Below are positions 21,491 to 36,706 of a stretch of DNA of 64,000 nucleotides, piece by piece; position 1 is the first letter of the stretch, and each line of letters starts with the position of its first letter. The stretch lies in contig CAZFTE010000005.1 in assembly GCA_964521785.1 (NCBI GenBank), positions 1,364 to 65,363 on the forward strand, given 5' to 3'. The translations under genes and the position numbers were made by a program. The notes beneath the pieces are model-generated. The model did no database searches. It saw nothing but the letters and a program-made list of their open reading frames with translations, and was not told where the DNA came from. The DNA is from an uncultured Lachnospiraceae bacterium. Lineage in GTDB: Bacteria > Bacillota > Clostridia > Oscillospirales > CAG-272.

Positions 21491-21862
21491 TTATTCCTCC
21501 TCGCTACGCAGATGCATATACATTTCATCGAGATTGAGCGTGTGATATTTTTTGTAAAGACGGACGCAGAGCGCGAGCATGAGCGCCGTAACGCTTACGG
21601 ATACGACGATACCCGTAAGAACGAGACCCGAGGGAATGGGATTGATGTAATCCGCAACATTTACCTCGCCTTCGGACGGTACGATCGGCGTAAGAGCGTT
21701 TTTGATATAGCCCATAGACGCAAGGAAAAGATATACGCCCGTATCCATGATGTTAAGACCCATTATCTTTTTGATAAGATTGCGGGAGAAAACGAGCATG
21801 GTAAAGCCTATCGCGAAAAGTATCATCGCAACAAGCTCTTCATAGTTTTGAATGATATTCAA
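21491..21862 (-). CDS. mrpC: MrpC/NuoK-like subunit
   Basis: Small 3-TM protein. The ORF-track start 21913 is TTG with a 55-nt overlap. I prefer TTG 21862, which overlaps the upstream stop as TTGA and has a G-rich SD. The start is uncertain (ATG 21826 is also possible). Confidence 0.7.
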   Translation of the reverse strand: MNIIQNYEELVAMILFAIGFTMLVFSRNLIKKIMGLNIMDTGVYLFLASMGYIKNALTPIVPSEGEVNVADYINPIPSGLVLTGIVVSVSVTALMLALCVRLYKKYHTLNLDEMYMHLRSEEE

Positions 21863-22767
21863 TTCATGCGCCCCCTTTTGAAAAGCATATAGAAGCTGTA
21901 CATCGTGCAACAAACGACAAGACCTACGGCAATATTGAGCGGCATGATAAGTCCGCCCGAAAGTATATCGCCGGGTGTGCCTGCCGAGATAATGGAATGA
22001 ACGCCGTTAAATTCGTTTCCCGTAAAGAATGAATAGCTCTTTGCAAGGCAATAGAAAGAAAGTGAGCAGATGCTTATGATCTTTACTTTCTTTTCGCTGA
22101 GAACCTTGAGCGCCTGTTCTTCGCCGTATACCATCGCGTAAAGGATAAATCCCGCGCCGAGTATAGCTCCGCCGGAGAAGCCGCCGCCGGGAGAAAGATG
22201 ACCGTTTACAAGGATATATACGCCAAAAACAAGTATGAGCGGAATGAGTATCCTTGCCATCGTTTTAACGATGGGGTCGCGAGAATAGTTGAGTATATCG
22301 CCAGATTCGTCCTTCGGCTTTTTCTTTCTGTCCTCCATAAGAATGAGTACGGCGCAAGTTGCCGTGAAAAGAACGAAAGATTCGCCGAGCGTATCGAACG
22401 CACGGTAGTCAAGTATCATACCCGCAACGGTATTGACAGCGCCTGTTTCATCTCTGCCGTTTACGACATAATGACCCGAAACGTCGTTCATCGTCGGAGT
22501 GTCCGTGTCGGCAAATCCGGGAAGCACCGCTACCGTAGCGATAAGAACACTTATAAGTATTATACAGAATATCGTTGAAAATACTCTGTATTCAAAAGCG
22601 GAAATTTTTTTCTCTTTCTTTTCGAGAGAAGTGATTATCTTGTTTTCGTCTTTGTCCGCTTTTTCGGAGCAAACTTTTTTCGCCTTGCTACCCTCGGATG
22701 CTTTTTCTGTAAGATCTATTTCGCCGTCGAGCCAACGGAGAAATCTTGCGGAGAATTTATTCTTCAT
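21859..22767 (-). CDS. mrpB: MrpB/MnhB-domain subunit with a charged N-terminal extension
   Basis: MnhB signature NTVAGMILDYRAFDTLGE. Start moved to ATG 22767 (AAGGAGG 6 nt upstream). About 60 aa of Lys/Glu-rich sequence precede the first TM. Confidence 0.75.
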   Translation of the reverse strand: MKNKFSARFLRWLDGEIDLTEKASEGSKAKKVCSEKADKDENKIITSLEKKEKKISAFEYRVFSTIFCIILISVLIATVAVLPGFADTDTPTMNDVSGHYVVNGRDETGAVNTVAGMILDYRAFDTLGESFVLFTATCAVLILMEDRKKKPKDESGDILNYSRDPIVKTMARILIPLILVFGVYILVNGHLSPGGGFSGGAILGAGFILYAMVYGEEQALKVLSEKKVKIISICSLSFYCLAKSYSFFTGNEFNGVHSIISAGTPGDILSGGLIMPLNIAVGLVVCCTMYSFYMLFKRGRMN

Positions 22768-23071
22768 TTTCTTCCTCCTTTTCGTCTTCGTCGGTTTCTT
22801 CCTTGTCAACTTCGTTATCTTTATCTATAAGGTGAAGTTTGCGGAGCGTAAGGAAGAAAAGTACGCCTGTGATACCCGCGCCGACAGCCGCCTCTGTTAT
22901 AGCAAGGTCGGGCGAACGCAACAAAAGCCAAACAACGGACATAACGATGCTGTATGAGGTGAATATTATTATCATCGTCATCGGCTTTTTCGAAAATGCC
23001 GTCGCAACGGCACAAACAACAAGAGAAATGAGAAGTATCACGCGGAATACGGTAAGCAATGTTTCAAGCAT
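22757..23071 (-). CDS. MbhD/DUF4040-like small subunit (equivalent to the MrpA C-terminal region)
   Basis: 104-aa, 3-TM protein (DLAITEAAVGAGITG) ending in an acidic tail DKEETDEDEKEEENEE. GGAGGG SD. Confidence 0.65.
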   Translation of the reverse strand: MLETLLTVFRVILLISLVVCAVATAFSKKPMTMIIIFTSYSIVMSVVWLLLRSPDLAITEAAVGAGITGVLFFLTLRKLHLIDKDNEVDKEETDEDEKEEENEE

Positions 23072-23405
23072 TTTCCTCGCCCTCCTTCGGAAGCTCGCAG
23101 TGTTCAGCCAAATGCTCGTCCGTCATATATTCAGCTTTTGTGAGCATATGAGATGTCAAGGGGCAAGTACACCACTGAATAAATACTATAAGCGCAAATT
23201 TCGCGGACATTATGTCGAATCCCGCCGCGATAACGCCGCCTATAAAGAAAAGTATCAAAACGATAGTATCGTTCATAGCGGCGCAATGTATGCGGTTGAG
23301 CGCGAAGCGGAAACGATATGTACCGAGTATGGAGATATAGAGCAAAACGAGCGCAGATATAAAGAATATCGCGATGATGCCGAATCTTATCCAATCCAAA
23401 ATCAT
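23064..23405 (-). CDS. mrpG: MrpG/MnhG subunit
   Basis: 113 aa with MnhG-like YRFRFALNRIHCAAMNDT motif. ATGA overlap with mrpF. Confidence 0.75.
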   Translation of the reverse strand: MILDWIRFGIIAIFFISALVLLYISILGTYRFRFALNRIHCAAMNDTIVLILFFIGGVIAAGFDIMSAKFALIVFIQWCTCPLTSHMLTKAEYMTDEHLAEHCELPKEGEENA

Positions 23406-23698
23406 TTTTTATCCCCCTTATTTCCGCCGAAAAGGTTGATATACATCTTGCAAAGTATCATTACGGAAAGGAAGCTCAATACGACGTAGATTATGCCGAC
23501 GTCGGGGAGGTAATTTTCCTTGAACAACAACGCAAGTATGCATATAGCGCAAACGACGATGGTCGTTATCATGTTGATACCGATGAAACGGTCTACCGTT
23601 CTTTTACCCGTTATCGTGCGGATAAGGCAGAGCAGCGCCGCTATACCGAGAAATATAAGTACCACACTGTAAAGGATATTATAAGCTGTTTCCAACAT
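23402..23698 (-). CDS. mrpF: MrpF/MnhF subunit
   Basis: 98 aa, 3 TM, with MnhF-like GKRTVDRFIGINMITT motif. Confidence 0.75.
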   Translation of the reverse strand: MLETAYNILYSVVLIFLGIAALLCLIRTITGKRTVDRFIGINMITTIVVCAICILALLFKENYLPDVGIIYVVLSFLSVMILCKMYINLFGGNKGDKK

Positions 23699-23700
23699 TA

Positions 23701-24174
23701 TTATTTTTCCATCCTTTCCAATATCTTAACGAATCTGCTGTTCTCTATTCCGTCGATGAACGAACGGTCAAGGCAGTGTACCGTATACTCGTCTCCGTTC
23801 TGGTCTATCGTGATAGTACCGGGAGTAAGAGTGATGGAGTTAGCCAAAAGCATACGTGAAAAGCTCTTTTTCAAGGGTATGTTCACTTTTACGACAGCAG
23901 GCGTAACCTTTCTTTCCTTGTTGAGAATGACGATGACGACGGAGTAATTCGCCTTCAACACTTCCCACACAAGAACGGCGCAATAAGCTATCAACAAGAC
24001 AGCATTTCGCCAAAAATAAAGCTCGGCTTTCGGAGAAAAACCAAGAGCTTTGACAGCAAAAATATACACAAGTGCCGCAACGGCTATACCGGAAACAACT
24101 ATTTCCGCCATACCCGCATCAAGCGTAAATCTGCCGTTCAAAAGTATCCACAGCACAAATAATAATATTGCCAT
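23701..24174 (-). CDS. mrpE: MrpE/MnhE subunit
   Basis: MnhE-like sequence (WILLNGRFTLD...). Start moved to ATG 24174 (AAAGGAAG upstream); the ORF-track N-terminal 33 aa run into AT-rich promoter DNA. Confidence 0.7.
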   Translation of the reverse strand: MAILLFVLWILLNGRFTLDAGMAEIVVSGIAVAALVYIFAVKALGFSPKAELYFWRNAVLLIAYCAVLVWEVLKANYSVVIVILNKERKVTPAVVKVNIPLKKSFSRMLLANSITLTPGTITIDQNGDEYTVHCLDRSFIDGIENSRFVKILERMEK

Positions 24175-24294
24175 AAAAACTTCCTTTCGTTTTTGAATAA
24201 AAAGCAAAAATAACGGTATAAAAACAATGCGCTTATGCACGTTATTCACCGAAATTTTACATTTTATTATCATTTTTTTAAATTTGCATACATT

Positions 24295-24474: not shown

Positions 24475-25794
24475 ATGTCCTTTTTCCTTAAAGGCGTTCA
24501 CGTTCCGCACAGGAAGAATACCGCCGATTCGGCTCCCATAAAGATGACCGTTCCTAAGACGGTCATGATTCCAATGTCAATGCATATAGGAAAGCCGTCC
24601 GTCCCTGTCGTAAGTGTGGGAGATCACGTACATGTCGGCACTCTCATTGGCAAGCAGAACGGCGCAGTCTCTTCTCCCATCTATTCGAGCGTTTCGGGAA
24701 CGGTAAAAAAGATAGACAATATCCTGCTTGCAAACGGAATGTATTCAAAAGCCGTCGTCATAGTTTCCGACGGACTGCAAACAAAAGACCCGAGCATATC
24801 CCCTCCCATCATCGCTTGTAAAGAAGACCTTGTTTCGGCAATACAAAAAAGCGGCATCGTCGGGCTTGGCGGCGCGGGATTCCCGACATATATCAAATTC
24901 AATGTCAAAGATGTTTCGGCAATAGACGAGCTTATCATCAACGGAGCGGAGTGCGAACCGTATATCACGAGCGACACGCGCACTATGATAGACAAAGCGG
25001 ACGATATCGCTTTTGCCATATCCCTTATCAAAAAGCATCTCGGTATCAAAAAAGTCATCATCGGCATAGAGACCAATAAAAAAAGAGCCATCATCAAAAT
25101 GAAAGAGATCGCCGAAGATATAGACGGCGCAGAAGTCAAGGTGTTGCCGAGCGTTTATCCTCAGGGCGGCGAAAAAGTGCTTATCTATCACACGACAGGA
25201 AAAGTGGTTCCCGCGGGAAAATTACCGATAGATATCGGCTGCATCGTTTGCAACTGCACAACAATGGCGGCAATAGCAAAATTCGCAAAAACAGGTATGC
25301 CTTTGGTTGAAAAATGCGTAACCGTCGATGGAAGCGCCGTCAAAGAACCGCAAAACGTTATCGTTCCGATAGGCACGTCCATGGCTGATGTTTTTGAATT
25401 TTGCAAAGGATTCGTATCCGAACCGAAAAAGATACTCTACGGCGGACCGATGATGGGAATATCCGTCGCGAGCATAGATATGCCCGTACTCAAAAACACG
25501 AATGCCCTGCTCGCGTTCAATGAAAAAGACGCGCTCAGACCTAAAACGACACAGTGTATCCATTGCGGTATGTGCGTTTCGCACTGCCCTTTCGGGCTTT
25601 CTCCCATCGGAATAGCAAAAGCGTATAAAAGTGGAAACATCGAGGAGCTGAAGAAGCTTCGCGTCGATATCTGTATGGAATGTGGCTGTTGTTCCTATAT
25701 CTGCCCTGCAAAGCGCCCACTTGCGGAAACGAACAAGTTGGCAAAAAATATGCTTCGCGAATATGTCGCAAAGCAAAAGGAGATACAAAAATGA
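24475..25794 (+). CDS. rnfC: Rnf complex subunit C
   Basis: 439 aa with GLGGAGFPT and two ferredoxin-type clusters, CIHCGMCVSHCP and CMECGCCSYICP. Confidence 0.93.
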   Translation: MSFFLKGVHVPHRKNTADSAPIKMTVPKTVMIPMSMHIGKPSVPVVSVGDHVHVGTLIGKQNGAVSSPIYSSVSGTVKKIDNILLANGMYSKAVVIVSDGLQTKDPSISPPIIACKEDLVSAIQKSGIVGLGGAGFPTYIKFNVKDVSAIDELIINGAECEPYITSDTRTMIDKADDIAFAISLIKKHLGIKKVIIGIETNKKRAIIKMKEIAEDIDGAEVKVLPSVYPQGGEKVLIYHTTGKVVPAGKLPIDIGCIVCNCTTMAAIAKFAKTGMPLVEKCVTVDGSAVKEPQNVIVPIGTSMADVFEFCKGFVSEPKKILYGGPMMGISVASIDMPVLKNTNALLAFNEKDALRPKTTQCIHCGMCVSHCPFGLSPIGIAKAYKSGNIEELKKLRVDICMECGCCSYICPAKRPLAETNKLAKNMLREYVAKQKEIQK

Positions 25795-26714
25795 ACGAAC
25801 TTCATATTTCCGCTTCGCCTCATATATACTGTCCGCGCACGACGCAAAGCATAATGCTCGATGTTTTGATAGCGCTTTTACCCGCTTCTGTCGTCGGAAT
25901 ATTGATATTCGGCATAAGAGCGCTCGCTGTCATAGCCGTTTGCGTGTCATTTGCCGTGATATCGGAATTTATTTTCAATAAGATATGCAAAAAAGAAACT
26001 ACGGTGGGCGACCTCAGCGCCGCCGTTACGGGAACATTGCTCGCGCTGAATCTGCCTGCGGATATTCCGCTTTGGCAAGGCGCGATAGGTTCTGTTTTTG
26101 CAATAGTCATAGTCAAATGCCTTTTCGGCGGTATAGGTCAAAACTTTGCAAATCCCGCAATAACGGGGCGCGTATTCATGCTTATCACGTTCGGCTCGAT
26201 GACAACTTCCGCAATGCCGAAGATAGCGGATACCGCGTCAAGCGCCACACCGCTCGTTTCCCTTGCGAACGGCGAAAGCGTAAAGCTCTCAACGCTTCTG
26301 CTCGGAACGCACGGCGGCACCATCGGTGAGACCTGCATAATAGCGATATTGATAGGCGGCATATACCTCATCGTTCGCAAAGTGATATTGCCGCATACAC
26401 CGATAGCTTTTATAGCAACTGTGTTCGTTCTGTCTTTGGCTGTAACAAAAGACTTTTCATCGGCACTTGCGTATATCCTTTCGGGCGGTCTTTTCATCGG
26501 TGCGTTCTTTATGGCAACAGACTACGCCACGACACCGTTGACATCATGGGGCAAGGTGATATTCGGTATAGGCGCAGGTGTCATAACAGTGGTCATAAGA
26601 TTTTGGGGTTCATACCCGGAAGGCGTGTCGTTTGCGATACTCCTCATGAATATCTTGTCGCCTTATATCGATAAATTAACGGCGAAAAAGCCTTTCGGAG
26701 GTGCAAAAACATGA
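25791..26714 (+). CDS. rnfD: Rnf complex subunit D
   Basis: Polytopic NqrB/RnfD family (FFMATDYATTP). Start placed at ATG 25791, which makes an ATGA overlap with the rnfC stop. Confidence 0.92.
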   Translation: MNELHISASPHIYCPRTTQSIMLDVLIALLPASVVGILIFGIRALAVIAVCVSFAVISEFIFNKICKKETTVGDLSAAVTGTLLALNLPADIPLWQGAIGSVFAIVIVKCLFGGIGQNFANPAITGRVFMLITFGSMTTSAMPKIADTASSATPLVSLANGESVKLSTLLLGTHGGTIGETCIIAILIGGIYLIVRKVILPHTPIAFIATVFVLSLAVTKDFSSALAYILSGGLFIGAFFMATDYATTPLTSWGKVIFGIGAGVITVVIRFWGSYPEGVSFAILLMNILSPYIDKLTAKKPFGGAKT

Positions 26715-27874
26715 AAAGATCTTTTCAAAGCGTTATCGTGCTGACAGTAATATGCATCGTCATCTCCGCGCTTTTGGCGGCGGTAAACGCGATCACATTT
26801 CCGATAATAGAAAAAGCGGAAGCGCAAAAAGCGAACGAAGCTCTCTTGATAGTAATGCCGAACGGCAAAAGCTTTGAGGAGCTTTCGATGATAGAATACG
26901 ATCTTCCATCCTCCGTTACAAACGCATACCGCGCAGAAAACGGCGGATATGTTTTCAAAATGACCACTACGGGATATTCATCCGGGCTTGTCATAATGTG
27001 CGGCATCGATAATAACGGAAAAATAACAGGCGCCGTCTGTCTTGACAGCGGAGAAACATTGAGGCATGAAAAAACGTTCGGCGAAAGATTCATCGGGCTT
27101 GACAAAGACGGTGCCGACATCGTGGATACCATATCGGGTGCAACAAAGACGACTTCGGCTTATAAAAACGCGATAAAAGACGCATTCAATTCATTCATCA
27201 TCTTAAAAGGCGGCAGTGTTGATATTCGAACAGAAGACGAGATCCTTGCGGACGAGCTTTCTGTTGCTCTACCAAACGGCGAAAATTTCAAAAAAGAATT
27301 TATCATCGATGTTTTGGATGGTATCGACGCGATATATCTCGCCCAAAACGGCGAGGGATATGTTTTCTCGGTCAACGGAAGCTTTGTCGGAATAGATAAA
27401 AACGGAGATATCGTCGGCAAGGTCGATAGCCTCGCCGAACGCAAAGCGCTCGATGCTTACGCGATATACAAAAACAGTTCTCTTGATGAATTGGACATAT
27501 CCGTTTACGACGATATCTCGGACAAGATAACAAAAGCTTATAAAACAAGCGGCGGAAATTATGTATTTTCTCTCAGGGCTTCGGGATACGGAATAAACGG
27601 CGAATGGCAAGCCTCGGGCGAATATATCGTTATCGATATCTCGATAACGAGCGGCGGCAAAATAATCTCGTGCGTTACAAGAGAGCAACACGAAACAGAA
27701 GGCATCGGCTCCGTTTGCGCTTTGCCGTCATATTACGAAAGATATAACGGCAAAACATCGCAAACGCTCGATGAAGTAGACGCAATAAGCGGCGCGACAT
27801 TCACCCATAACGGTTACCGCGTTGCAGTCCTCAAGGCTTTGGAAGCCGTAGATATATTGGAGGGAGCAAAATAA
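26711..27874 (+). CDS. rnfG: Rnf complex subunit G, elongated, with two FMN-binding domains
   Basis: 387 aa with an N-terminal TM anchor. Two DxISGAT motifs (S142-T145 at 27134-27145; S360-T363 at 27788-27799). Three GG/EG/GN-YVF repeat starts. Confidence 0.85.
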   Translation: MKRSFQSVIVLTVICIVISALLAAVNAITFPIIEKAEAQKANEALLIVMPNGKSFEELSMIEYDLPSSVTNAYRAENGGYVFKMTTTGYSSGLVIMCGIDNNGKITGAVCLDSGETLRHEKTFGERFIGLDKDGADIVDTISGATKTTSAYKNAIKDAFNSFIILKGGSVDIRTEDEILADELSVALPNGENFKKEFIIDVLDGIDAIYLAQNGEGYVFSVNGSFVGIDKNGDIVGKVDSLAERKALDAYAIYKNSSLDELDISVYDDISDKITKAYKTSGGNYVFSLRASGYGINGEWQASGEYIVIDISITSGGKIISCVTREQHETEGIGSVCALPSYYERYNGKTSQTLDEVDAISGATFTHNGYRVAVLKALEAVDILEGAK

Positions 27875-27876
27875 AA

Positions 27877-28566
27877 ATGAAAAATACAAATAAACTTTCC
27901 TTTCTTCTCAAAGGCTTGCTCCTTGAAAATCCCGTTTTCGTGCTTGTGTTGGGTACTTGCCCGACGCTTGCCACCACGACGAGCGTGATAGGAGCCGTAA
28001 GCATGGGGCTTGCCGCGACCGCGGTGTTGACATGCTCGAACACGGTCATATCATTGCTCCGCAAAGTGATACCCGATAAAGTGCGGATACCTTGCTATAT
28101 AGTTATCATCGCGGGGTTTGTAACTCTCGTTCAGATGCTCATGCACGCATATCTGCCCGAACTTTACGAGCTTCTCGGAATATACCTTGCGCTCATAACC
28201 GTAAATTGTATAATCCTCGGCAGAGCGGAGATGTTCGCAAGCAAAAACGATGTCGGCGCATCTGCCCTTGACGGTCTGGGAATGGGGCTTGGATTTACGC
28301 TCGCCCTCTTTCTCATGTCAACGATAAGAGAAATATTCGGCAACGGCTCTTTCGCAGGCATAGCCATACCGTTTTTGCAAAATTATAAGATAGAGTTTTT
28401 GGTAAGGTCCCCCGGCGGATTTCTCGTGTTCGGCATCTTGATAGCGATAGTGAACGCCGCCGCAAGAGGCAAAGCCCTAAAGAAAAAGGATTTCGGTTGC
28501 GAAGCTTGCCCGAGCGCGGGTATTTGCCATTCCAACTCTTGCACAGCGGAAAAGGAGGAAAAGTGA
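27877..28566 (+). CDS. rnfE: Rnf complex subunit E
   Basis: 229 aa, NqrD/RnfE family (NPVFVLVLGTCPTLA). Confidence 0.92.
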   Translation: MKNTNKLSFLLKGLLLENPVFVLVLGTCPTLATTTSVIGAVSMGLAATAVLTCSNTVISLLRKVIPDKVRIPCYIVIIAGFVTLVQMLMHAYLPELYELLGIYLALITVNCIILGRAEMFASKNDVGASALDGLGMGLGFTLALFLMSTIREIFGNGSFAGIAIPFLQNYKIEFLVRSPGGFLVFGILIAIVNAAARGKALKKKDFGCEACPSAGICHSNSCTAEKEEK

Positions 28567-28567
28567 T

Positions 28568-29167
28568 ATGGATACTTTCAAAAATTTGATGATCATACTC
28601 ATGTCCTCCGTGCTTGTCAACAACTATGTATTGAGCAGATTCTTGGGCATATGTCCCTTTTTGGGCGTTTCGAAAAAGCTCGATCAAGCAAGCGGTATGG
28701 GACTGTCCGTAATATTCGTAATGCTTTTGGCAACAGCGGCTACTTGGCCCATACAAAGATTCATTCTCGAACCGTTGAAACTTGAATTTTTGCAAACGAT
28801 AGTATTCATACTCGTTATAGCAGCCCTCGTTCAGTTTATAGAGATAGCTTTGAAAAAATATATACCCTCGTTGCACAAAAATCTCGGCGTATATCTTCCG
28901 CTTATAACGACAAACTGTGCTGTTCTCGGTGTTACCATAAACAACATCACGGACGGATACAGCTTTATCGAATCCATGGTAAGCTCGCTCGGTTGCGGTC
29001 TTGGATTTTTGCTTGCCATGGTGCTGTTCTCGGGCGTTCGCCAAAGGATAGAGGATTGCGATGCCCCCGAATGTTTCAAAGGGCTTCCGATAACGCTCAT
29101 TGCGGCATCGATAGTTTCGCTCGCTTTCTTCGGCTTTACGGGAATAGTCGATAACATTTTCGCATGA
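28568..29167 (+). CDS. rnfA: Rnf complex subunit A
   Basis: 199 aa, NqrE/RnfA family (LGICPFLGVS). Confidence 0.92.
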   Translation: MDTFKNLMIILMSSVLVNNYVLSRFLGICPFLGVSKKLDQASGMGLSVIFVMLLATAATWPIQRFILEPLKLEFLQTIVFILVIAALVQFIEIALKKYIPSLHKNLGVYLPLITTNCAVLGVTINNITDGYSFIESMVSSLGCGLGFLLAMVLFSGVRQRIEDCDAPECFKGLPITLIAASIVSLAFFGFTGIVDNIFA

Positions 29168-29185
29168 TTTCGGAGGTATTGATAT

Positions 29186-29989
29186 ATGTTTAATGCTATT
29201 ATTACAGCCGTGGCGGTCGTTGGCGCCATCGGTCTTATCTGCGGAATAATACTCGCGCTCGCTTCTCATTTCATGAGCGTGAAAACAGACGAGAGAATAT
29301 CCGATATCCGCGAATGTTTGCCGGGCGCAAACTGCGGCGCTTGCGGTTACACGGGTTGCGACGGATATGCAAAAGCGATAATAGAGGATAGCGCAAAAAC
29401 GAATCTCTGCGTTCCTGGCGCTTCCGATGTCGCGAAAAAAATATCGGATATGCTGGGCGTGGAAGCGGAAGCTGTGGAGAGATGCGTTGCGTTCGTTCAC
29501 TGCAACGGAAACTTCGACGCGGCAAAAAGCAAAGCCATCTACGACGGCATTAAAAGCTGCAAAGCGGAATGTCTTATATACGGCGGCTCCAAAGCTTGTG
29601 TTTTTGGTTGTGTCGGTTGCGGAGATTGCGCCTCCGTTTGCCCAAAAGGCGCCATATGCGTCGATGACGGAGTTGCTCGGATAAATCGTTCGCTCTGCAT
29701 CGGGTGCGGCATCTGCGTAAGATCTTGCCCAAAGGGGCTGATAACGCTCATTCCCGCAAAAGCGAAGGTTGCCGTGATGTGCAACAGCAAAGAAAAAGGG
29801 GCTTCGGTTCGCAAAGCTTGCACAAACGGCTGTATCGGTTGCAAAAAATGTGAAACGATATGTCCCCAAGACGCTATTCATGTTGAAAACAATCTTGCCG
29901 TGATAGATCATGACAAATGTGTAGGTTGCGGTCTTTGCGCCAAAAATTGTCCTATTCAATGTATAGTAAAGATACCGAAGAACTCTTGA
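29186..29989 (+). CDS. rnfB: Rnf complex subunit B (polyferredoxin)
   Basis: 267 aa with an N-terminal TM, CGACGYTGC, and several CxxCxxCxxxCP 4Fe-4S motifs. Confidence 0.92.
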   Translation: MFNAIITAVAVVGAIGLICGIILALASHFMSVKTDERISDIRECLPGANCGACGYTGCDGYAKAIIEDSAKTNLCVPGASDVAKKISDMLGVEAEAVERCVAFVHCNGNFDAAKSKAIYDGIKSCKAECLIYGGSKACVFGCVGCGDCASVCPKGAICVDDGVARINRSLCIGCGICVRSCPKGLITLIPAKAKVAVMCNSKEKGASVRKACTNGCIGCKKCETICPQDAIHVENNLAVIDHDKCVGCGLCAKNCPIQCIVKIPKNS

Positions 29990-30043: not shown

Positions 30044-30421
30044 ATGGAAAAGAAAAAAATCAAAAACGACATTATCCTCATCTCAGCGATATTGATATGC
30101 TTGTTTTCGGCGCTTGCCGTATTTTTGACGATACGCAGTGTCGGCGGCTATGCTGTCGTTATAAAAAACGGAGTTGAAACAGCACGCTATCCGCTCTTTA
30201 AAGATGCGGAGATAACGCTGACTTATCCCGAAAGCGATGCATACAATACCTTGAAGATAGAAAACGGCAAAGCGAGCATCATCTCCGCTTCCTGCGCGGA
30301 CGGAATATGCGTCGAGCATCGTGCGATAAGATACGACGGCGAAACGATAGTTTGTTTGCCGAACAAGCTCGTCATAAAGATAATATCCGAAAGCGAGGGC
30401 GCTGTGGACGCGATATCGTAA
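30044..30421 (+). CDS. NusG domain II-containing membrane-anchored protein
   Basis: 125 aa with an N-terminal TM and a beta-rich domain carrying ASCADGICVEH and IVCLPNKLVI, typical of this family. GGAGGG SD. Confidence 0.7.
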   Translation: MEKKKIKNDIILISAILICLFSALAVFLTIRSVGGYAVVIKNGVETARYPLFKDAEITLTYPESDAYNTLKIENGKASIISASCADGICVEHRAIRYDGETIVCLPNKLVIKIISESEGAVDAIS

Positions 30422-30422
30422 A

Positions 30423-30914
30423 ATGAAAACAAAAAAGCTTACTTTTTTGGCGCTTTGCGCTTGCATCGCGCTCATACTGTCATATATCGAATCTTTACTG
30501 CCACCGATATTTTCCGCCATACCCGGCATAAAAGTCGGATTGCCGAATATTATCATCATATTTGCCCTATATCGTTACGGTCTGTGCGCCGCGGGCGCTG
30601 TTTCGATGATACGAATATGCTTATCCGCGCTTCTTTTCGGCAATGTTTGGTCGCTGGTTTACAGCATATGCGGTGGCGCGTTGAGCCTATTTTTGATGTT
30701 TTTATTAAAGAAAACAGAACGATTTTCCTATGTCGGTATCAGCGTAGTCGGCGGCATCTCGCATAATTTGGGGCAAATCTTGCTTGCCATGGTAGCCCTT
30801 AAAACGCGCGAGATAGGCTTCTATATGATAGTTCTTTCGTTCAGCGGCATAATAGCGGGTATATTAGTGGGGCTTGCCTCGGCGCTCATGCTCAAATATG
30901 TAAAAAAGGTATAG
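30423..30914 (+). CDS. Gx transporter family protein (Hpre_diP_synt_I-like)
   Basis: 163 aa, 5 TM, with signature IESLLPPIFSAIPGIKVGLPNIIII. Start lies 1 nt after the upstream stop. Confidence 0.7.
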   Translation: MKTKKLTFLALCACIALILSYIESLLPPIFSAIPGIKVGLPNIIIIFALYRYGLCAAGAVSMIRICLSALLFGNVWSLVYSICGGALSLFLMFLLKKTERFSYVGISVVGGISHNLGQILLAMVALKTREIGFYMIVLSFSGIIAGILVGLASALMLKYVKKV

Positions 30915-30945
30915 AAAGCAAACGCTCTCTATACCTTTTTGTTTT
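30908..30945. terminator. bidirectional terminator between the Gx-transporter gene and apbE
   Basis: Stem GGTATAGA/TCTATACC followed by TTTTTGTTTT, with an A-run on the other side. Confidence 0.55.
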
Positions 30946-31966
30946 ATCTGTTCCAATCCGAGGAATATATCACGCTTTTGTCGTTTTTGACCCACAAAGC
31001 CTTTGTGCCGTCCAAAGAATCAATAAGCGCCATTCCGTCTTCTAGGCTCATACTGAAAAGAGCCGTGGAAAGCGCATCCGCAAGACCGGAATCCTCGCAA
31101 AGCACGGAAACGGAGAGAAATGTGTCATCCGGCATGAGCGTATCCTTGCTTATGATGTGATGATATCTTTTGCCGTCAACATAATAGAATCTTTGATACG
31201 AACCACTCGTAATGAGCGCGCCGCTCGTCATGTAAACATATTCGATATATTCTTCTCCATCATACGGAGCCTCCACTCCGACGGTCCAAGGAGTGCCGTC
31301 GCCGCGCGGACCTATCACGCAAACATTGCCGCCGACATTTATAATGTAACCGCTTTTGCCGATACCTTCAAGATATTCCACAATGCGCGCCGCGGCATAT
31401 CCTTTTGCTATCGCGCCAACATCAACGCTCATTTCTCCATCGGCAAGATAAGCCGTTCCGCGTTCGCGGTCTATGACGATATCGTTTATATCCGTATGTT
31501 TGGAAGCATTAGAAAGCACCTCCATCGATGGTATAGATGCCTTTTCGGGAGAGATAGAGCCTATATCTCTATGATCGTGCCATATCGAAAGCACGCTTCC
31601 CATCGCTATGTTTGTATAACCGGCGGTAATATCGTATATCTCTTTGCCGTATTCCAAAAGAGACAATATTTTTTCATCAAGCTCGATAGGTTCACGCGAA
31701 TTATTGAGCGTATAAAGATTATTCAAACCATCGTAAGGCGTATATATGTCATACAGTTTATGATATTCCTCCAAGAGAGCAAATATATCCTCGCAAACAG
31801 CGTCGAACTCCGCTTTTTCGCTCTCATATCCTATTATGACAGTAGATGTATCAAAATAGTCGAAGTTATACGCGCTGTATCTGTTCTTGCGCTTTTGGCA
31901 AGAACAGCACACGCACGATATAAGCAACGCCAAAGCAACGCATAATGTTTTTTTGAATATCTTCAT
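30944..31966 (-). CDS. apbE: FAD:protein FMN transferase (ApbE family lipoprotein)
   Basis: 340 aa with a signal peptide and Cys-rich lipobox region (ALLISCVCCSC). ApbE motifs VDVGAIAKGYAA and TSGSYQRFYYVDGKRYHHIISKDT. Confidence 0.9.
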   Translation of the reverse strand: MKIFKKTLCVALALLISCVCCSCQKRKNRYSAYNFDYFDTSTVIIGYESEKAEFDAVCEDIFALLEEYHKLYDIYTPYDGLNNLYTLNNSREPIELDEKILSLLEYGKEIYDITAGYTNIAMGSVLSIWHDHRDIGSISPEKASIPSMEVLSNASKHTDINDIVIDRERGTAYLADGEMSVDVGAIAKGYAAARIVEYLEGIGKSGYIINVGGNVCVIGPRGDGTPWTVGVEAPYDGEEYIEYVYMTSGALITSGSYQRFYYVDGKRYHHIISKDTLMPDDTFLSVSVLCEDSGLADALSTALFSMSLEDGMALIDSLDGTKALWVKNDKSVIYSSDWNR

Positions 31967-32029
31967 CTTTATCCCTCGCCATGTAAAATATGAGGAGAGA
32001 TATTCTCCTCATATTTTCGAATATTATAT

Positions 32030-33001
32030 CTATTTTTGTTCGATAGCTTTCATGATAGCCTTTGCCATGCCCGATATCTTAACGGTGCAACCTGCGTTCA
32101 ATATTTCTTCGCCGCCGTAACCGTCGGAAGAAACGAGCTTTTTTATCTCTTCGGCGGTCTTGCCTACGCAGAACTCCGCAAGCTTATCCGCTTGTTCGAA
32201 CCACTCAAGCTTAGAACCCGCTTTCTCCATGCCGTAATCATAGCCTTTTTCTCGTTTTGTCGATACCTTTTCGTCCGCGCTTACGGTGGAAGCTCCGTTT
32301 CTGTCGAATGTGAAATTCATCTCGGCACTGTCGAATATCGTAAAAACACATCTTCCGTCTTTATCAGTAACCGATGCGGCAACGTCTGCCGTTATTTTTC
32401 CGTAGCCGTCCGCTTCCTCGCTCGCACTTCTTCCGCTTTGATAAGCGTCCGTGCCGATAGTCAGAGCGTATTCTCCGTCGATATCGCATTTTTTTGCGTT
32501 ATCACAAGCTTTTTCTATCGCTTTTACCATGTCTGTCAAAACCATCGTACAGCCATGGCTTACAAGCTCCGCATTTCCGTAGCCGTCAGGCGTCAAAGTC
32601 GCCGTTATCTCGCCGTGAGTTTTTCCCTTGCAAAAGTTTTCGAATATTTTTATCTGTTCTGCCTGCGAGATATTGGAACCGACCGTTTTATCGTCGCTCT
32701 CTCTTTTTGTCGCTACGCTTTTGGTTCCGACAAGTTCCCCGCCCGCAGTATATTCTACGGTATCTTCCGCAACATCTATCTTTATATCGATGATATTTCC
32801 GTCTTTGCCGATAATAACAGCGGCAGCCGTCATATCGAAAATACCTTTTCCGTTCGTCTCCTCGATTGCGTCGAGAGCCGAATAAGACGGCACCACCCCA
32901 AGCCCAAGCTTAGTCTCCTCTTCGGCAGAGCCGCAAGCGGCAAGCGCAAACAAGCAAAAAGCCAAAGATAACGCAAATATCATCTTGAAAATTCTTTTCA
33001 T
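32030..33001 (-). CDS. lipoprotein with two FMN_bind-like repeats (PplA-like architecture, non-canonical G-C-T motifs)
   Basis: 323 aa with lipobox LAAC (C23). Two about 140-aa repeats, each ending with STKRE..GxxYG..(W)..Q..F..GKT...DGYG...L..GCT...MxKAI. G150-C151-T152 at 32554-32546 and G304-C305-T306 at 32092-32084. Confidence 0.6.
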   Translation of the reverse strand: MKRIFKMIFALSLAFCLFALAACGSAEEETKLGLGVVPSYSALDAIEETNGKGIFDMTAAAVIIGKDGNIIDIKIDVAEDTVEYTAGGELVGTKSVATKRESDDKTVGSNISQAEQIKIFENFCKGKTHGEITATLTPDGYGNAELVSHGCTMVLTDMVKAIEKACDNAKKCDIDGEYALTIGTDAYQSGRSASEEADGYGKITADVAASVTDKDGRCVFTIFDSAEMNFTFDRNGASTVSADEKVSTKREKGYDYGMEKAGSKLEWFEQADKLAEFCVGKTAEEIKKLVSSDGYGGEEILNAGCTVKISGMAKAIMKAIEQK

Positions 33002-33253
33002 ATATCAACTCCATAAAATATATCCAAAAATTTTCATACAAGAATAATACATTATTTTTCAACGAAAGTCAATATTTTTCCCGTATGAACGTTTACGCAC
33101 AGCGTAAAGTGCTTTTCAAGATATATTCTGCCCTTTCCGATATATTTTTATAAAATATTTTTTATATTTATGATGACAAATCGCTTTTAAAGTTGTATAA
33201 TAGGAAAGTCGTCAAAAAGACACACAATTTTTACAGGAAATACGGTGATACAT

Positions 33254-34396
33254 ATGAAAAAAACTGACAAAGTAAAGAGAGCTGTCTTCTCTTTCGTAAG
33301 ACAAAACACCGTTTTGATGATCGCAATATGCGCCGCCTTGATAACATCTTTCATCGTGCCACCCGACAAAGAATATTTGGGATATTTCGATTTCAAAACG
33401 CTCAGCTGTCTTTTTTCCGTTTTGGCGGTAGTGTGCGCGCTCCGCAACATACATTTCTTTACCATACTCGCGCGAAAGATAGTTAAACTTTGCAAAAACT
33501 CTCGTTTGTGCGTGTTGACGCTCGTCTATATAACGTTCATCGGCTCCATGCTGATAGCAAACGATATGGCGCTCATAACATTTTTGCCGCTCGGCTTTTT
33601 CGCGCTCGACAGCACGGGCAAGCAAAAATATCTTCCATTTACATTCATAATGCAGAACATCGCCGCCAACCTCGGCGGTATGCTCACACCTTTCGGAAAT
33701 CCCCAAAATCTTTATCTTTACAGTAAATTCAATATCCCCACGGGCGAATTTATGGAGATAATGCTGTTTCCTTTCATTCTCGCAATAGCGGTCATAACGA
33801 TATGCTGTTTCATTTTCGTAAAAAAAGAAGAGCTTTACATCGTTCCGAAGGAAGAAAAGCTCGATGTAAAAAGAGCGGTATTTTACGCTTTGCTTTTCGC
33901 TCTTTCAATACTTGCTGTTTTCAGAGTGATAAATTATATCGTGGCTCTCGCGATAATAACGGTCGCGCTCTTGATAGCCGATCGAAAAGCGCTTGCCAAA
34001 GTTGACTATGGTCTGCTCTTCACGTTCTGCGCGTTCTTCGTATTTGCGGGAAATATGTCTCGCATACCTGCGGTAAACTCACTGCTCTCTATGTTGCTCG
34101 AAAAGAACACTCTCGTTTTTTCGGCACTCTCTTGCCAGTGCATAAGCAACGTGCCTTCCGCTATACTCCTTTCCAACTTCACGGATAATTACCGCGACTT
34201 GTTGCTCGGCGTAAACATCGGCGGTGTCGGAACGCTCATTTCCTCGCTTGCTTCGCTCATCACGTTTAAGGAATATACGAACCTTTACCCCAAGAGCGCA
34301 GGAAACTATATTTTGAAATTTTCCGCTTTCAACTTCTTTTTCCTCATCTCGCTCTTACTGTTGCAGAGCTTGTTCAATGCATTGACGGTATTTTGA
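33254..34396 (+). CDS. ArsB/NhaD (CitMHS-like) superfamily ion transporter
   Basis: About 380-aa polytopic protein with permease-type repeats (NIAANLGGMLTPFGNPQN). The ORF-track start 33245 is GTG; ATG 33254 is preferred. Confidence 0.55.
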   Translation: MKKTDKVKRAVFSFVRQNTVLMIAICAALITSFIVPPDKEYLGYFDFKTLSCLFSVLAVVCALRNIHFFTILARKIVKLCKNSRLCVLTLVYITFIGSMLIANDMALITFLPLGFFALDSTGKQKYLPFTFIMQNIAANLGGMLTPFGNPQNLYLYSKFNIPTGEFMEIMLFPFILAIAVITICCFIFVKKEELYIVPKEEKLDVKRAVFYALLFALSILAVFRVINYIVALAIITVALLIADRKALAKVDYGLLFTFCAFFVFAGNMSRIPAVNSLLSMLLEKNTLVFSALSCQCISNVPSAILLSNFTDNYRDLLLGVNIGGVGTLISSLASLITFKEYTNLYPKSAGNYILKFSAFNFFFLISLLLLQSLFNALTVF

Positions 34397-34459: not shown

Positions 34460-36706
34460 TTATTTGAGCAAGCCGCACGCATTTTCGTACGCTGTCTTTA
34501 CCTGATTTGCATTGAGAGCAACATCGTAAACCTTAACGTCTACGCAAGAGAAGTCTTTCATCGGGAAGCCGTTGGGGCCGATATCGTTACCGATGGAAAG
34601 CTGGTTAGCATAAGGAACGAATCTTGTATCGCCTATCCAAAGTTCACCTTTAAGCTCGCTACTTCCCTGCAATTCGCCGTTTACATAGATAGCTGTATAG
34701 AACTTACCGTCGTAAACGATACCTGTTGCAACAACGTGTGTAAGGTCTGTTGCGGAAGCTTTGCCTTTAGCGTATGTGTAGTTGTAAGATTTCTTTTCTG
34801 TCGTATATGTGCAGAAACCGGGAGTGCCGTGGTTCGTCGTAGCGATACCGAGACCGCCGTATTCAGTCGCGCAAAGTACGCCCGCCGTAGCTTTGTCTGT
34901 GCCGTCCATATCGTTGCTGATATAGAATGCTTCAAGCGTAAAGCCTGCCGCACCGTTATAAAGATCGTTTATAGTAGATGTGTCATATTTGTCGATAGTA
35001 AGAGTACCGGACTGACCGGATGCCGTTACATTGAGAGCTGCCAAAGTGTTCTTCAAACCGTTATGAGTGAACTCTTTTTCGCCGATAGTAGCGCCGCCGA
35101 TAAGTGTAACTGTGGAGTTGCCCTTAACGTCTGTGGCTGTGCCGTCTGCGTTGAAATCGATATCAACGATAGCTTCGGGAAGAACGGAAGTATCTGTATC
35201 TGTTACGGATACTGTCGCTGTAAGAGCATTGCTCTGTGCATCCCAAGAGTCTACTGCTACAACTTCTATCTTATAATCTGTACCTGCCGTAAGAGTTCCT
35301 ATGGAATAAGAAAGCTCTTTCTTCATGCTTTCTGCGGGGTTGGAATAGAGATAGAAGTCTGTGAGGTATTTGGATTCGCTGATAACAGCGCCTGTTTTTA
35401 CGTTTGTAACTTTTACGATGTAGTGGTGAACGAAATCATCGTCAGCACCTGCGTTGAAAGATACTGTGGCAACATTGGAGCCACCTATCTTAGCTGTTAC
35501 AACTTTGAGTTCGCCGCTCATTGTGGGAGCCGCGTTGGAATTTGCACGGTCTTCTGTGTATGCTTTAAGGTGAGAACCGTCTGCGGAAGGAGCGGAAAGT
35601 TCCCAAGTTGTCTTGAATGTGGAATTATCGGCAAAGTTCATTCTTGTGATCCTTACGTTGCCGTTCTTGTCCACCTGAACGAGATGACCGGAAGAAGTCT
35701 GACCTGCATCGGAAGGAACTGTGCCGCTTACATTTGCATATCCGTTTTCGATAGCCATGTATGTTACGGAACCGCAACCGATAGACGTGAATTTATCCTG
35801 CATGATAGAGCGTTCGTCGTTTATCGGGAAATGAGTATGACCGCCGAATGTCATTACCTGAGGATATTTTTCAAGGATAGTTGTAAGGTCTTTTGTATAC
35901 CAACGGTGGTTACCCGTGAGAAGTGTGCTACCGTATGTCGTGCCGTATACCATAGGATGAGTATTTACGAAAACATACTGGTTGGGGTTTTCCGCTGTGA
36001 TCTTTGCAAGAGTATCGTCGAGCCACTGTTTAGCTTTTTCTGAGTACAAAACGCCGCCTGCGTCCGTACCGATGTATTCTTTATCGATAGGATTGATACA
36101 GAGGAAGTGATAACCGTTCACGATAGTGTGTGTGCAACCGATGGAAAGGTCGCTCGTTTCTTCTTCATATGAATTGTACTGAGAACCGAATATGGAGTAG
36201 AAAGAGGACATTGTGAGGTTTTCATATGTGTAACCTGCGTTGCAGTTTACGTCATGGTTGCCAAGGGAGAAGATAAGCGGAACATTTACGGGAGACAAAA
36301 CTTCCTCGTAAGCCTGTTTAAATTCTTTTACCTGGTTAGTTTGAGCGTTCTGAACAAGGTCGCCTACAAAAAGGACTGCGTTAAGGTCGCTACCCGATTC
36401 GATAGCATATGTTGAAAGCTGCTGGAGAGCGCTCTTGAATTTTTCGAGCGTATCGATGTTGGGGTATTTGTGCTGAGTATCGGATATAGCCGCAAAAGAA
36501 AGAATGATGTTGTTTTCATCAAAATCTTTGGAAGGTGTTACGGCATTGTCCGTTGTCTGGTCCGAAGAGCCTGTTGTCTGTTCGGAATGATCTGTCGTGT
36601 TGTCTGTTCCGACATTCGTGTCTGTTGTTTTGTTTTCTCCGCCTGCGCAAGAAGCAACAGCGAAAAGCATTGCAACAACAAGCAATAACGATAAAAGTTT
36701 TTTCAT
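34460..36706 (-). CDS. surface lipoprotein: calcineurin-like metallophosphoesterase plus beta-sandwich region plus C-terminal LamG/concanavalin-like domain
   Basis: 748 aa with lipobox VASC. Metallophosphoesterase motifs GDLVQN, GNHD, GGHTHF. The C-terminal ~200 aa are lectin/LamG-like (assigned from composition and pattern only). Confidence 0.65.
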   Translation of the reverse strand: MKKLLSLLLVVAMLFAVASCAGGENKTTDTNVGTDNTTDHSEQTTGSSDQTTDNAVTPSKDFDENNIILSFAAISDTQHKYPNIDTLEKFKSALQQLSTYAIESGSDLNAVLFVGDLVQNAQTNQVKEFKQAYEEVLSPVNVPLIFSLGNHDVNCNAGYTYENLTMSSFYSIFGSQYNSYEEETSDLSIGCTHTIVNGYHFLCINPIDKEYIGTDAGGVLYSEKAKQWLDDTLAKITAENPNQYVFVNTHPMVYGTTYGSTLLTGNHRWYTKDLTTILEKYPQVMTFGGHTHFPINDERSIMQDKFTSIGCGSVTYMAIENGYANVSGTVPSDAGQTSSGHLVQVDKNGNVRITRMNFADNSTFKTTWELSAPSADGSHLKAYTEDRANSNAAPTMSGELKVVTAKIGGSNVATVSFNAGADDDFVHHYIVKVTNVKTGAVISESKYLTDFYLYSNPAESMKKELSYSIGTLTAGTDYKIEVVAVDSWDAQSNALTATVSVTDTDTSVLPEAIVDIDFNADGTATDVKGNSTVTLIGGATIGEKEFTHNGLKNTLAALNVTASGQSGTLTIDKYDTSTINDLYNGAAGFTLEAFYISNDMDGTDKATAGVLCATEYGGLGIATTNHGTPGFCTYTTEKKSYNYTYAKGKASATDLTHVVATGIVYDGKFYTAIYVNGELQGSSELKGELWIGDTRFVPYANQLSIGNDIGPNGFPMKDFSCVDVKVYDVALNANQVKTAYENACGLLK

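Follow-up and report, generated by a model that had tools for sequence, protein, structure and literature searches.

The sequence analyzed here is a stretch of 64,000 nt, in the following called the window, from an uncultured Lachnospiraceae bacterium (contig CAZFTE010000005.1, positions 1,364 to 65,363). On its minus strand an open reading frame without internal stops (32030-33001) encodes a protein of 323 amino acids, the window lipoprotein, which by its translation belongs to a family of two-domain lipoproteins resembling the FMN-bind2 type of flavin mononucleotide (FMN)-binding domains and carrying the sequence A-G-C-T. Direct reading disclosed a signal peptide with lipobox, MKRIFKMIFALSLAFCLFALAAC (32933-33001, minus strand), which starts with MKRIFK and ends with L-A-A-C, the predicted lipidated residue being Cys23. 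The corresponding Cys column is conserved to at least 90% (alignment A1). The mature part consists of two repeats of approximately 150 amino acids each, which are homologous to one another (33% identity over 146 amino acids, E = 1e-18). Repeat 1 comprises about residues 29-172 (32486-32917, minus strand) and repeat 2 residues 174-323 (32033-32482, minus strand). An AlphaFold2 model of the whole lipoprotein reached a mean predicted local distance difference test (pLDDT) of 92.6 and a predicted template modelling score (pTM) of 0.87, a model of repeat 2 alone a pLDDT of 93.3. In repeat 1, four long β-strands followed by helices were predicted, strands of 13-15 residues being located at E29-42, E50-63 and E69-83, with equivalents and subsequent helices in repeat 2. 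An initial annotation of this DNA, made from the letters alone, had thus correctly described a lipoprotein with an LAAC lipobox built from two repeats.

At equivalent positions, each of the two repeats contains the tripeptide G-C-T. Translation placed motif 1 (G150-C151-T152, in the context S-H-G-C-T) at 32546-32554 and motif 2 (G304-C305-T306, in the context N-A-G-C-T) at 32084-32092, both on the minus strand and exactly as given in the initial annotation. T152 and T306 are the predicted acceptors of FMN. In the following, the T/S acceptor is numbered 0 and the residues preceding it -1, -2, -3 and -6. That a pair of such motifs resides in a lipoprotein whose gene adjoins apbE, the gene of a FAD (flavin adenine dinucleotide):protein FMN transferase, is far beyond chance. 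A protein search revealed 475 homologues (E ≤ 1e-3), none of which was assigned to a Pfam or NCBIfam family. The sequence (A)GC(T) was present in both repeats of all 120 homologues listed, save one T-to-I change. Out of 398 motifs pooled from 199 unique homologues, every one possessed G at -2 and C at -1, while the acceptor was T in 395, S in two and I in one of them, and A was found at -3 in 392. Broken down by repeat, G and C occurred in 199/199 sequences at either site, T in 197/199 at motif 1 and in 198/199 at motif 2, where the remaining residue was S. Genes for the family were detected in at least 518 of the species-representative genomes scanned, most of which are metagenome-assembled genomes from gut or rumen labelled Oscillospiraceae, Acutalibacteraceae, Eubacteriales or Clostridia.

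The family motif can be written as [D/E]-[D/E]-[V/L]-x-x-A-G-C-[T/S] and does not match the canonical D-x-x-[S/T]-G-A-[S/T]. The glycine at -2 and the T/S acceptor are kept, whereas positions -1, -3 and -6 differ. At both sites the Cys codons vary (TGT 18 and 15, TGC 64 and 67), and the Gly, Ala and Thr codons of the motif vary synonymously as well. The use of both Cys codons together with this synonymous variation indicates that the motif is held by purifying selection on the protein. Purifying selection was also apparent on the elements TK-E, EW-Q and GKT in both repeats of about 200 sequences. Judged from the alignments, the Ala-to-Cys change is under selection, in agreement with the initial annotation, which had argued for selection instead of decay because the same change occurs in both repeats; orthologues with an ordinary SGAT, by which it would have been reduced to a peculiarity of one strain, did not turn up, the cysteine being present in 398 of 398 motifs.

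The window lipoprotein itself is an outlier of this family, sharing approximately 37% identity with most members. Its repeat 1 is the only one among the 199 unique sequences with His at -3, where Ala is nearly invariant elsewhere. A deletion of seven residues has removed the otherwise nearly invariant loop Y-x-M-x-x-Y-G-G from the same repeat, and it reads S-Q where the family has a nearly invariant E-W pair. The claim that both repeats follow the FMN_bind pattern therefore held for repeat 2 but not entirely for repeat 1, which lacks the loop and the E-W pair. This divergence may mean that the cofactor pocket of one domain is altered or weakened. A similar departure of repeat 1 from the family was seen in the close relatives P0001 and P0002.

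The gene immediately 3′ of the lipoprotein gene is apbE (30944-31966, minus strand; Pfam PF02424, E = 3e-64), whose product is itself a predicted lipoprotein. Matches in the PDB included Listeria FmnB (7esa, E = 4e-31), Vibrio cholerae ApbE (6nxi) and Ftp of Treponema pallidum, so that the ApbE neighbour named in the initial annotation is well founded. The pairing of the two genes was counted in related loci extending that far. In all 84 loci of the family, apbE is located directly 3′ of the lipoprotein gene on the same strand, and the same is true for 6/6 loci of distant relatives, which makes 90 in total. The order in most of the 84 loci is rnfCDGEAB, a NusG_II gene, a PF07456 gene, the lipoprotein gene and apbE. 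The obligate pair moves as a unit, since it was retained in rearranged loci (L013, L027, L035 and L036) and in inverted orientation in L005 and in the window. Both properties expected of an ApbE substrate, an extracytosolic location (lipobox LAAC) and a neighbouring apbE gene (84/84 and 6/6), were thus found.

The window also contains the remaining genes of this module. The rnfCDGEAB operon was recognized by Pfam matches and translations (24475-29989, plus strand). It is followed by a gene for a small membrane protein with a NusG_II domain (30044-30421, plus strand; Pfam E = 1e-25) and by a gene for a membrane protein of family PF07456 (Hpre_diP_synt_I; 30423-30914, plus strand; Pfam E = 3e-35), which corresponds to an EetB-type S component of energy-coupling factor transporters (ECF-S) for FAD export (PMC9973259). 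PF07456 has been equated with EetB, a FAD-binding ECF-S-like component required for the flavinylation of PplA, and EetB was co-localized with Rnf in 572 genomes of Clostridia (Rivera-Lugo et al., PMC9973259). As the NusG_II gene always adjoins the PF07456 gene in the related loci, we infer that it is probably the equivalent of EetA.

Two subunits of the Rnf complex carry flavinylation motifs of their own. RnfG (26711-27874, plus strand) has 387 amino acids and contains two FMN_bind domains with the canonical motifs DTISGAT and DAISGAT, and RnfD contains the motif SSAT. In most of the 84 related loci RnfG has a length of approximately 390 amino acids. Multi-flavinylated RnfGs have been proposed to provide a second route to extracytosolic acceptors (Méheust et al., PMC8238504). 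The RnfG sizes fit this published branched electron path, in which the lipoprotein is a possible partner. In 20 cases, RnfG of related loci possesses the sequence A-G-A-T, from which we concluded that the local system accepts Ala at -3.

Since RnfG and RnfD are canonical ApbE substrates encoded by the same operon, they would already account for the presence of ApbE. The lipoprotein could then be a protein that is not flavinylated but binds FAD or FMN non-covalently, as a receiver between the EetB-type exporter and ApbE or, put differently, as a surface flavin buffer for the maturation of RnfG and RnfD in a cell without periplasm. In most loci its gene is immediately flanked by the eetB-like gene on one side and apbE on the other, which would suit such a role, as would the non-canonical residues at -1, -3 and -6. 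We regard this explanation as improbable. The hydroxyl group of the acceptor is conserved as in a phosphoester acceptor, even in the two T-to-S changes, and in two loci (L087 and L088) the lipoprotein-ApbE pair occurs without rnf or eetB nearby. Furthermore, apo NqrC binds free FMN very weakly (PMC4348036), which characterizes the fold as a poor non-covalent binder.

The relationship of the family to known FMN-binding domains was difficult to recognize. The search with the hidden Markov model (HMM) of FMN_bind suggested by the initial annotation was negative: neither the window lipoprotein nor 70 homologues matched Pfam FMN_bind (PF04205) at E ≤ 1, and Pfam and NCBIfam scans that included 10 distant relatives gave no usable family. 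The only trace was found in relative P0232, whose motif region matched FMN_bind below the threshold (E = 0.096). Foldseek searches of the PDB did not disclose an FMN_bind structure among the 50 matches listed for the full model, which were spurious MHC (major histocompatibility complex)-like matches with template modelling (TM) scores of about 0.1, nor among the 50 listed for the single domain, where SPLUNC1, LptE and mitoribosomal proteins appeared without significance. The best E-values (0.02-0.05) belonged to unrelated folds, and 3O6U, 4XA7, 8P2A/B and 2KZX were not among the 50 matches listed. An alignment with RnfG, likewise proposed at the outset, also failed to give support. Comparison by hhalign of the domain profile with an alignment of approximately 65 RnfG proteins yielded the right register at a non-significant E-value of 0.059, and this match was rejected as evidence of homology.

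A profile of the family, on the other hand, had one match in the PDB, 2kzx (E = 8.9e-8 with the full profile, 4.3e-7 with that of domain 2 by itself), to which residues 231-320 in repeat 2 of the window lipoprotein align. This protein (Clostridium thermocellum A3DHT5, NqrC-like, apo form) is the only solved structure with detectable sequence kinship. The alignment runs from Y-x-M...Y-G-G-A through E-W-x-E-Q-A to the C-terminal helix and puts G-C-T on G-A-T of D-A-I-S-G-A-T, and motif 2 of the window lipoprotein falls on the same residues. The assignment of G-C-T to the place of the canonical motif in the initial annotation was thereby supported (E of about 9e-8). Shared elements are Y-x-M-x-x-Y-G-G-A, E-W-x-E-Q-A, G-x-T-I-x-V and the C-terminal helix, whereas 2kzx differs by its single domain of 131 amino acids, its canonical motif and the lack of long N-terminal strands. 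The aligned fragment of 2kzx passes the gathering score of Pfam FMN_bind (25.3 vs 22 bits), and 2KZX has been counted among the NqrC-like structures (Borshchevskiy et al., PMC4348036). The profile data indicate a genuine but distant homology to FMN-binding domains, which is transitive through 2kzx alone. With FMN_bind of RnfG and NqrC (PF04205), the window lipoprotein has in common the extracytosolic location, an acceptor immediately ahead of the C-terminal helix and a G-K motif before the site, and the phosphoester acceptor and the dependence on ApbE are predicted for it. It gave no significant HMM, profile-profile or Foldseek match to them, however, and does not contain the elements ETPGLG and T-x-T-S. 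RnfG of the same operon retains G-A-T where the window lipoprotein has G-C-T.

That the protein was recognized neither by any of the curated HMM libraries nor by a search for similar folds, and that conserved loop residues have gone from repeat 1 of the window lipoprotein, would be compatible with a structural or decoy lipoprotein which descended from a flavin-binding domain and has no cofactor. This is a very unlikely explanation in view of the strong purifying selection on A-G-C-T, TK-E, EW-Q and GKT in both repeats of about 200 sequences and of the ApbE synteny in all 90 loci.

An exhaustive profile search extended the family to a superfamily of 1,845 clusters at 50% identity (E ≤ 1e-3). 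The residues at -1 were tallied on 564 aligned domains from 267 superfamily proteins. Cysteine prevailed (about 487 domains), followed by V (about 40), A (about 11), T (6), I (2) and M (1), while the acceptor was T or S throughout and the neighbouring residues varied. In P0138 and P0232 the sequence is D-L-L-S-G-C-T, differing from the textbook motif by a single A-to-C change. Other motifs encountered were GAT, SAT, SVT, SCS, QCS and DCT. Cysteine was kept at -1 where G at -2 is replaced by S, D, T, Q, V or N. Out of the 267 proteins, 250 contain two domains, 11 contain four and two contain six; odd numbers were found in four. All six distant members with variant motifs that were looked up (6/6) have apbE directly 3′. 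Cluster names for the distant relatives disclosed nothing but 'hypothetical protein'. A four-domain lipoprotein with the motifs GAT/SVT/SAT/SVT resides in an identical module of NusG_II, PF07456, lipoprotein, apbE and rnf genes (L085). RnfG of this locus has a single domain and 177 amino acids. In another locus (L086, 1-14249), a lipoprotein with the motifs SVT/EVT is encoded together with PF07456, ApbE, NusG_II, UbiA, a polyprenyl synthase, a Pyr_redox_2 dehydrogenase and two TauE proteins. This is a Listeria-like cluster for extracellular electron transfer (EET), which ties the superfamily to quinone-dependent EET. L087 and L088 harbor the lipoprotein-apbE pair alone. Six tandem domains with S-V-T or S-C-S sites were detected in P0121 and P0129 (983-991 amino acids; L088, 401-3376), followed by ApbE. 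These relatives, unannotated by Pfam, are candidates for long multi-flavin wires.

These data bear on the role of the cysteine. In NqrC, Ala228 at -1 lines the FMN cavity, and the loop 227-231 forms the ribityl groove (PMC4348036). By analogy, the cysteine most likely takes the place of this flavin/ribityl-groove alanine. The occurrence of V, A, T and I at -1 in apbE-linked relatives shows that the module can in general fulfil its function without a thiol, and the range of C, V, A, T and I seen in the alignments is typical of a small, buried position. ApbE is specific for T or S as acceptor (PMC12052999), with which the retention of the acceptor in the family (395 T and two S out of 398) is in agreement. 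In fumarate reductase of Klebsiella pneumoniae, an A-to-V exchange at -1 leaves approximately 50% flavinylation and a D-to-A exchange has a minor effect (PMC12052999). A-G-C-[T/S] may thus be read as a variant of the classical [S/T]-G-A-[S/T] site.

A chemically active cysteine would be a more far-reaching explanation. Three versions were considered, namely a doubly tethered FMN, in which the cysteine is bonded to the isoalloxazine as a further covalent link or as a C4a adduct, a flavin-thiol redox pair engaged in extracytosolic thiol, disulfide or sulfur chemistry, and the ligation of a metal. Its invariance in 398/398 motifs of an Rnf-linked family using both codons, its persistence when G at -2 becomes S, D, T, Q, V or N, and a side chain at -1 which by analogy with Ala228 of NqrC faces the flavin cavity are in line with such a role. 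Relatives in the same kind of module (EetB-type protein, lipoprotein, ApbE, and rnf or EET genes), however, have V, A, T or I at -1 with T/S intact, and in NqrC this position borders the ribityl/phosphate end of FMN and not N5, C4a, C6 or the C8-methyl group. Among 239 even-numbered domains with the cysteine at -1, 81 lack C278, the only other conserved cysteine, and the two residues are not coupled, so that there is neither a conserved Cys pair nor a metal site. A disulfide or metal pair C278-C305 beside the flavin was rejected, as C278 alternates in its column with V, I, L, A, T and M. Altogether, we judge an active cysteine to be unlikely, and it is similarly doubtful that the invariant residue participates functionally in the cofactor site as a thiol that reacts with the isoalloxazine, tethers it or relays electrons or sulfur from it. 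If this were true, the sites would represent a new class of covalent flavin centre, and Rnf of gut Oscillospirales would possess a dedicated surface flavin-thiol outlet to extracellular acceptors; the interest of the family would be considerably higher if the thiol was part of the cofactor chemistry.

Out of the three readings left by the initial annotation (variant ApbE substrate, cofactor linkage through the thiol, non-flavinylated or decoy domain), the variation of -1 between C, V, A, T and I, together with the constancy of the T/S acceptor and of the downstream ApbE, favours the first and weakens the thiol linkage and the decoy. As the probable explanation, we propose that the window lipoprotein is a lipid-anchored carrier of two FMN loaded by ApbE at variant A-G-C-T sites with a packing cysteine, and that it is coupled to Rnf. 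The EetB-type component of the cluster would export FAD, and the lipoprotein ApbE would transfer the FMN part to the hydroxyls of T152 and T306, generating a di-FMN protein; the same ApbE presumably flavinylates RnfG and RnfD too. Two domains of the FMN-bind2 type may pack as one pseudo-symmetric, lipid-anchored extracytoplasmic unit, in which the cysteine would most likely be a small pocket residue packing against the flavin or tuning it and not the attachment atom. On the outer face of the membrane, the unit would swap electrons with the additional FMN domain of RnfG, its probable donor. In this way Rnf would gain a side outlet or inlet to extracytosolic partners, as PplA provides for Ndh2 and demethylmenaquinone (DMK) in Listeria.

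Several observations weigh against this proposal. V or L replaces the canonical Asp at -6, acidic residues being found at -7/-8 instead. Despite divergence to approximately 35% identity, the cysteine is replaced by A, V or T in 0/398 motifs, which hints at a Cys-specific constraint because a small hydrophobic role alone would predict some replacements. Moreover, ApbE could be present merely for RnfG and RnfD, family-conserved residues are lost from repeat 1 of the window lipoprotein, and no G-C-T site was experimentally flavinylated in the literature found. On the side of homology, the sequence relationship depends on the single bridge 2kzx, the window lipoprotein and 70 homologues have no Pfam or NCBIfam FMN_bind match, comparison with the RnfG alignment was not significant (E = 0.059), and the structural model found no FMN_bind structure among the 50 Foldseek matches listed per search, all with E > 0.02.

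The carrier proposed here can be compared with two described systems. In Listeria monocytogenes, PplA serves as the last, extracytosolic carrier in flavin-based electron transfer. Like PplA and the cAD1 precursor lipoprotein of Enterococcus, the window lipoprotein is a surface lipoprotein with two domains for flavin attachment, the gene of which lies beside an ApbE-family transferase (FmnB) and genes of the EetA/EetB type. The flavin sites of PplA, T143 and T265, are 122 residues apart (PMC8906456), compared to 154 residues in the window lipoprotein, and by published description PplA orthologues have SGAT/TGAT motifs (PMC7074142) instead of GCT. The PplA locus is associated with Ndh2 and DMK (genes for Ndh2, DmkA, DmkB and FmnA), whereas the window locus has rnfCDGEAB and EetA/EetB-like genes but neither Ndh2 nor Dmk. 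The designation 'PplA-like' in the initial annotation was hence appropriate for architecture and context but not for the subtype, considering spacing, motif and the association with Rnf.

A closer fit was obtained with FMN-bind2. Its description (Huang et al. 2024, PMC10979944) gives a domain of approximately 150-160 amino acids with extended β1-β3 and even domain numbers forming pseudo-symmetric pairs. The family agrees with the features given there in its repeats of approximately 150 amino acids, long strands, two, four or six domains in 263 of 267 proteins, the apbE neighbour and the affiliation to Firmicutes. According to the same source, FMN-bind2 domains pair via their sheet faces and thus form a unit with two attachment sites, and a pTM of 0.87 was obtained for the model of the window lipoprotein. 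In that description an [S/T]GA[S/T]-like motif is given and a cysteine is not mentioned, in contrast to the invariant A-G-C-T of the window family. Judged by its predicted anatomy, the window lipoprotein probably belongs to FMN-bind2, the Erysipelotrichaceae example having been compared by its description.

Some further features of the locus should be mentioned. A GGAG ribosome-binding site was found 8-11 nt upstream of the lipoprotein start, and a promoter-like site TTGACT-17-TATTAT, put forward as a consensus match (10/12), 5′ of the gene (33044-33072, minus strand). The 63 nt separating the lipoprotein gene from apbE contain a perfect 14-bp hairpin (31985-32017, minus strand; RNA fold -18.4 kcal/mol, z -6.3), which may act as an attenuator or partial terminator setting the expression ratio of substrate to enzyme. 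After apbE, a terminator-like hairpin of 17 bp with a U-run (30903-30940, minus strand; -22.8 kcal/mol, z -9.6) is shared with the convergent eetB-like gene. With A- and U-runs on its flanks it looks like a bidirectional terminator; a scan for consensus terminators did not list it. The first ATG of the RnfD reading frame overlaps rnfC by 115 nt (25680-25794, plus strand). As the Pfam match begins at residue 43 and a Met is present at residue 38 (MNELHIS...), the true initiation site is probably located around 25791 and overlaps the stop codon of rnfC. Directly upstream of the rnf operon and divergent from it, genes of an Mrp/Mbh-type cation:proton antiporter (Proton_antipo_M, MnhB/MbhE, MNHE) are located at 19982-24273 (minus strand). 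On the other side, a CitMHS-family transporter gene (33245-34396, plus strand) is divergent from the flavin lipoprotein gene, and a predicted lipoprotein of 748 amino acids, which has a long C-terminal extension in addition to a calcineurin-like metallophosphoesterase domain, is encoded at 34460-36706 (minus strand).

The co-localization of eetB and Rnf, the multi-flavinylated RnfG and the FMN-bind2 fold are already published. The searched literature yielded no account of a Cys-containing or non-canonical ApbE motif, nor of an Rnf-linked lipoprotein family of this kind. We regard the family, with its invariant A-G-C-T site, as an undescribed, unannotated and widely distributed subfamily, probably of the FMN-bind2 type. 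ApbE-dependent flavinylation is usually sought by means of Pfam FMN_bind together with the [S/T]GA[S/T] motif. Since the Pfam model misses the family, its members are probably under-represented in counts of extracytosolic flavoproteins. Should the G-C-T sites prove to be flavinylated, the accepted ApbE motif would have to include C, V, T or I at -1 as well as sites without Asp at -6, which would matter for the prediction of substrates and for flavin-tag engineering. Finally, the fixed place of the gene in rnf-eetA-eetB-lipoprotein-apbE operons and the two-domain RnfGs make the lipoprotein a concrete candidate for a side outlet of Rnf in abundant fermentative gut bacteria.

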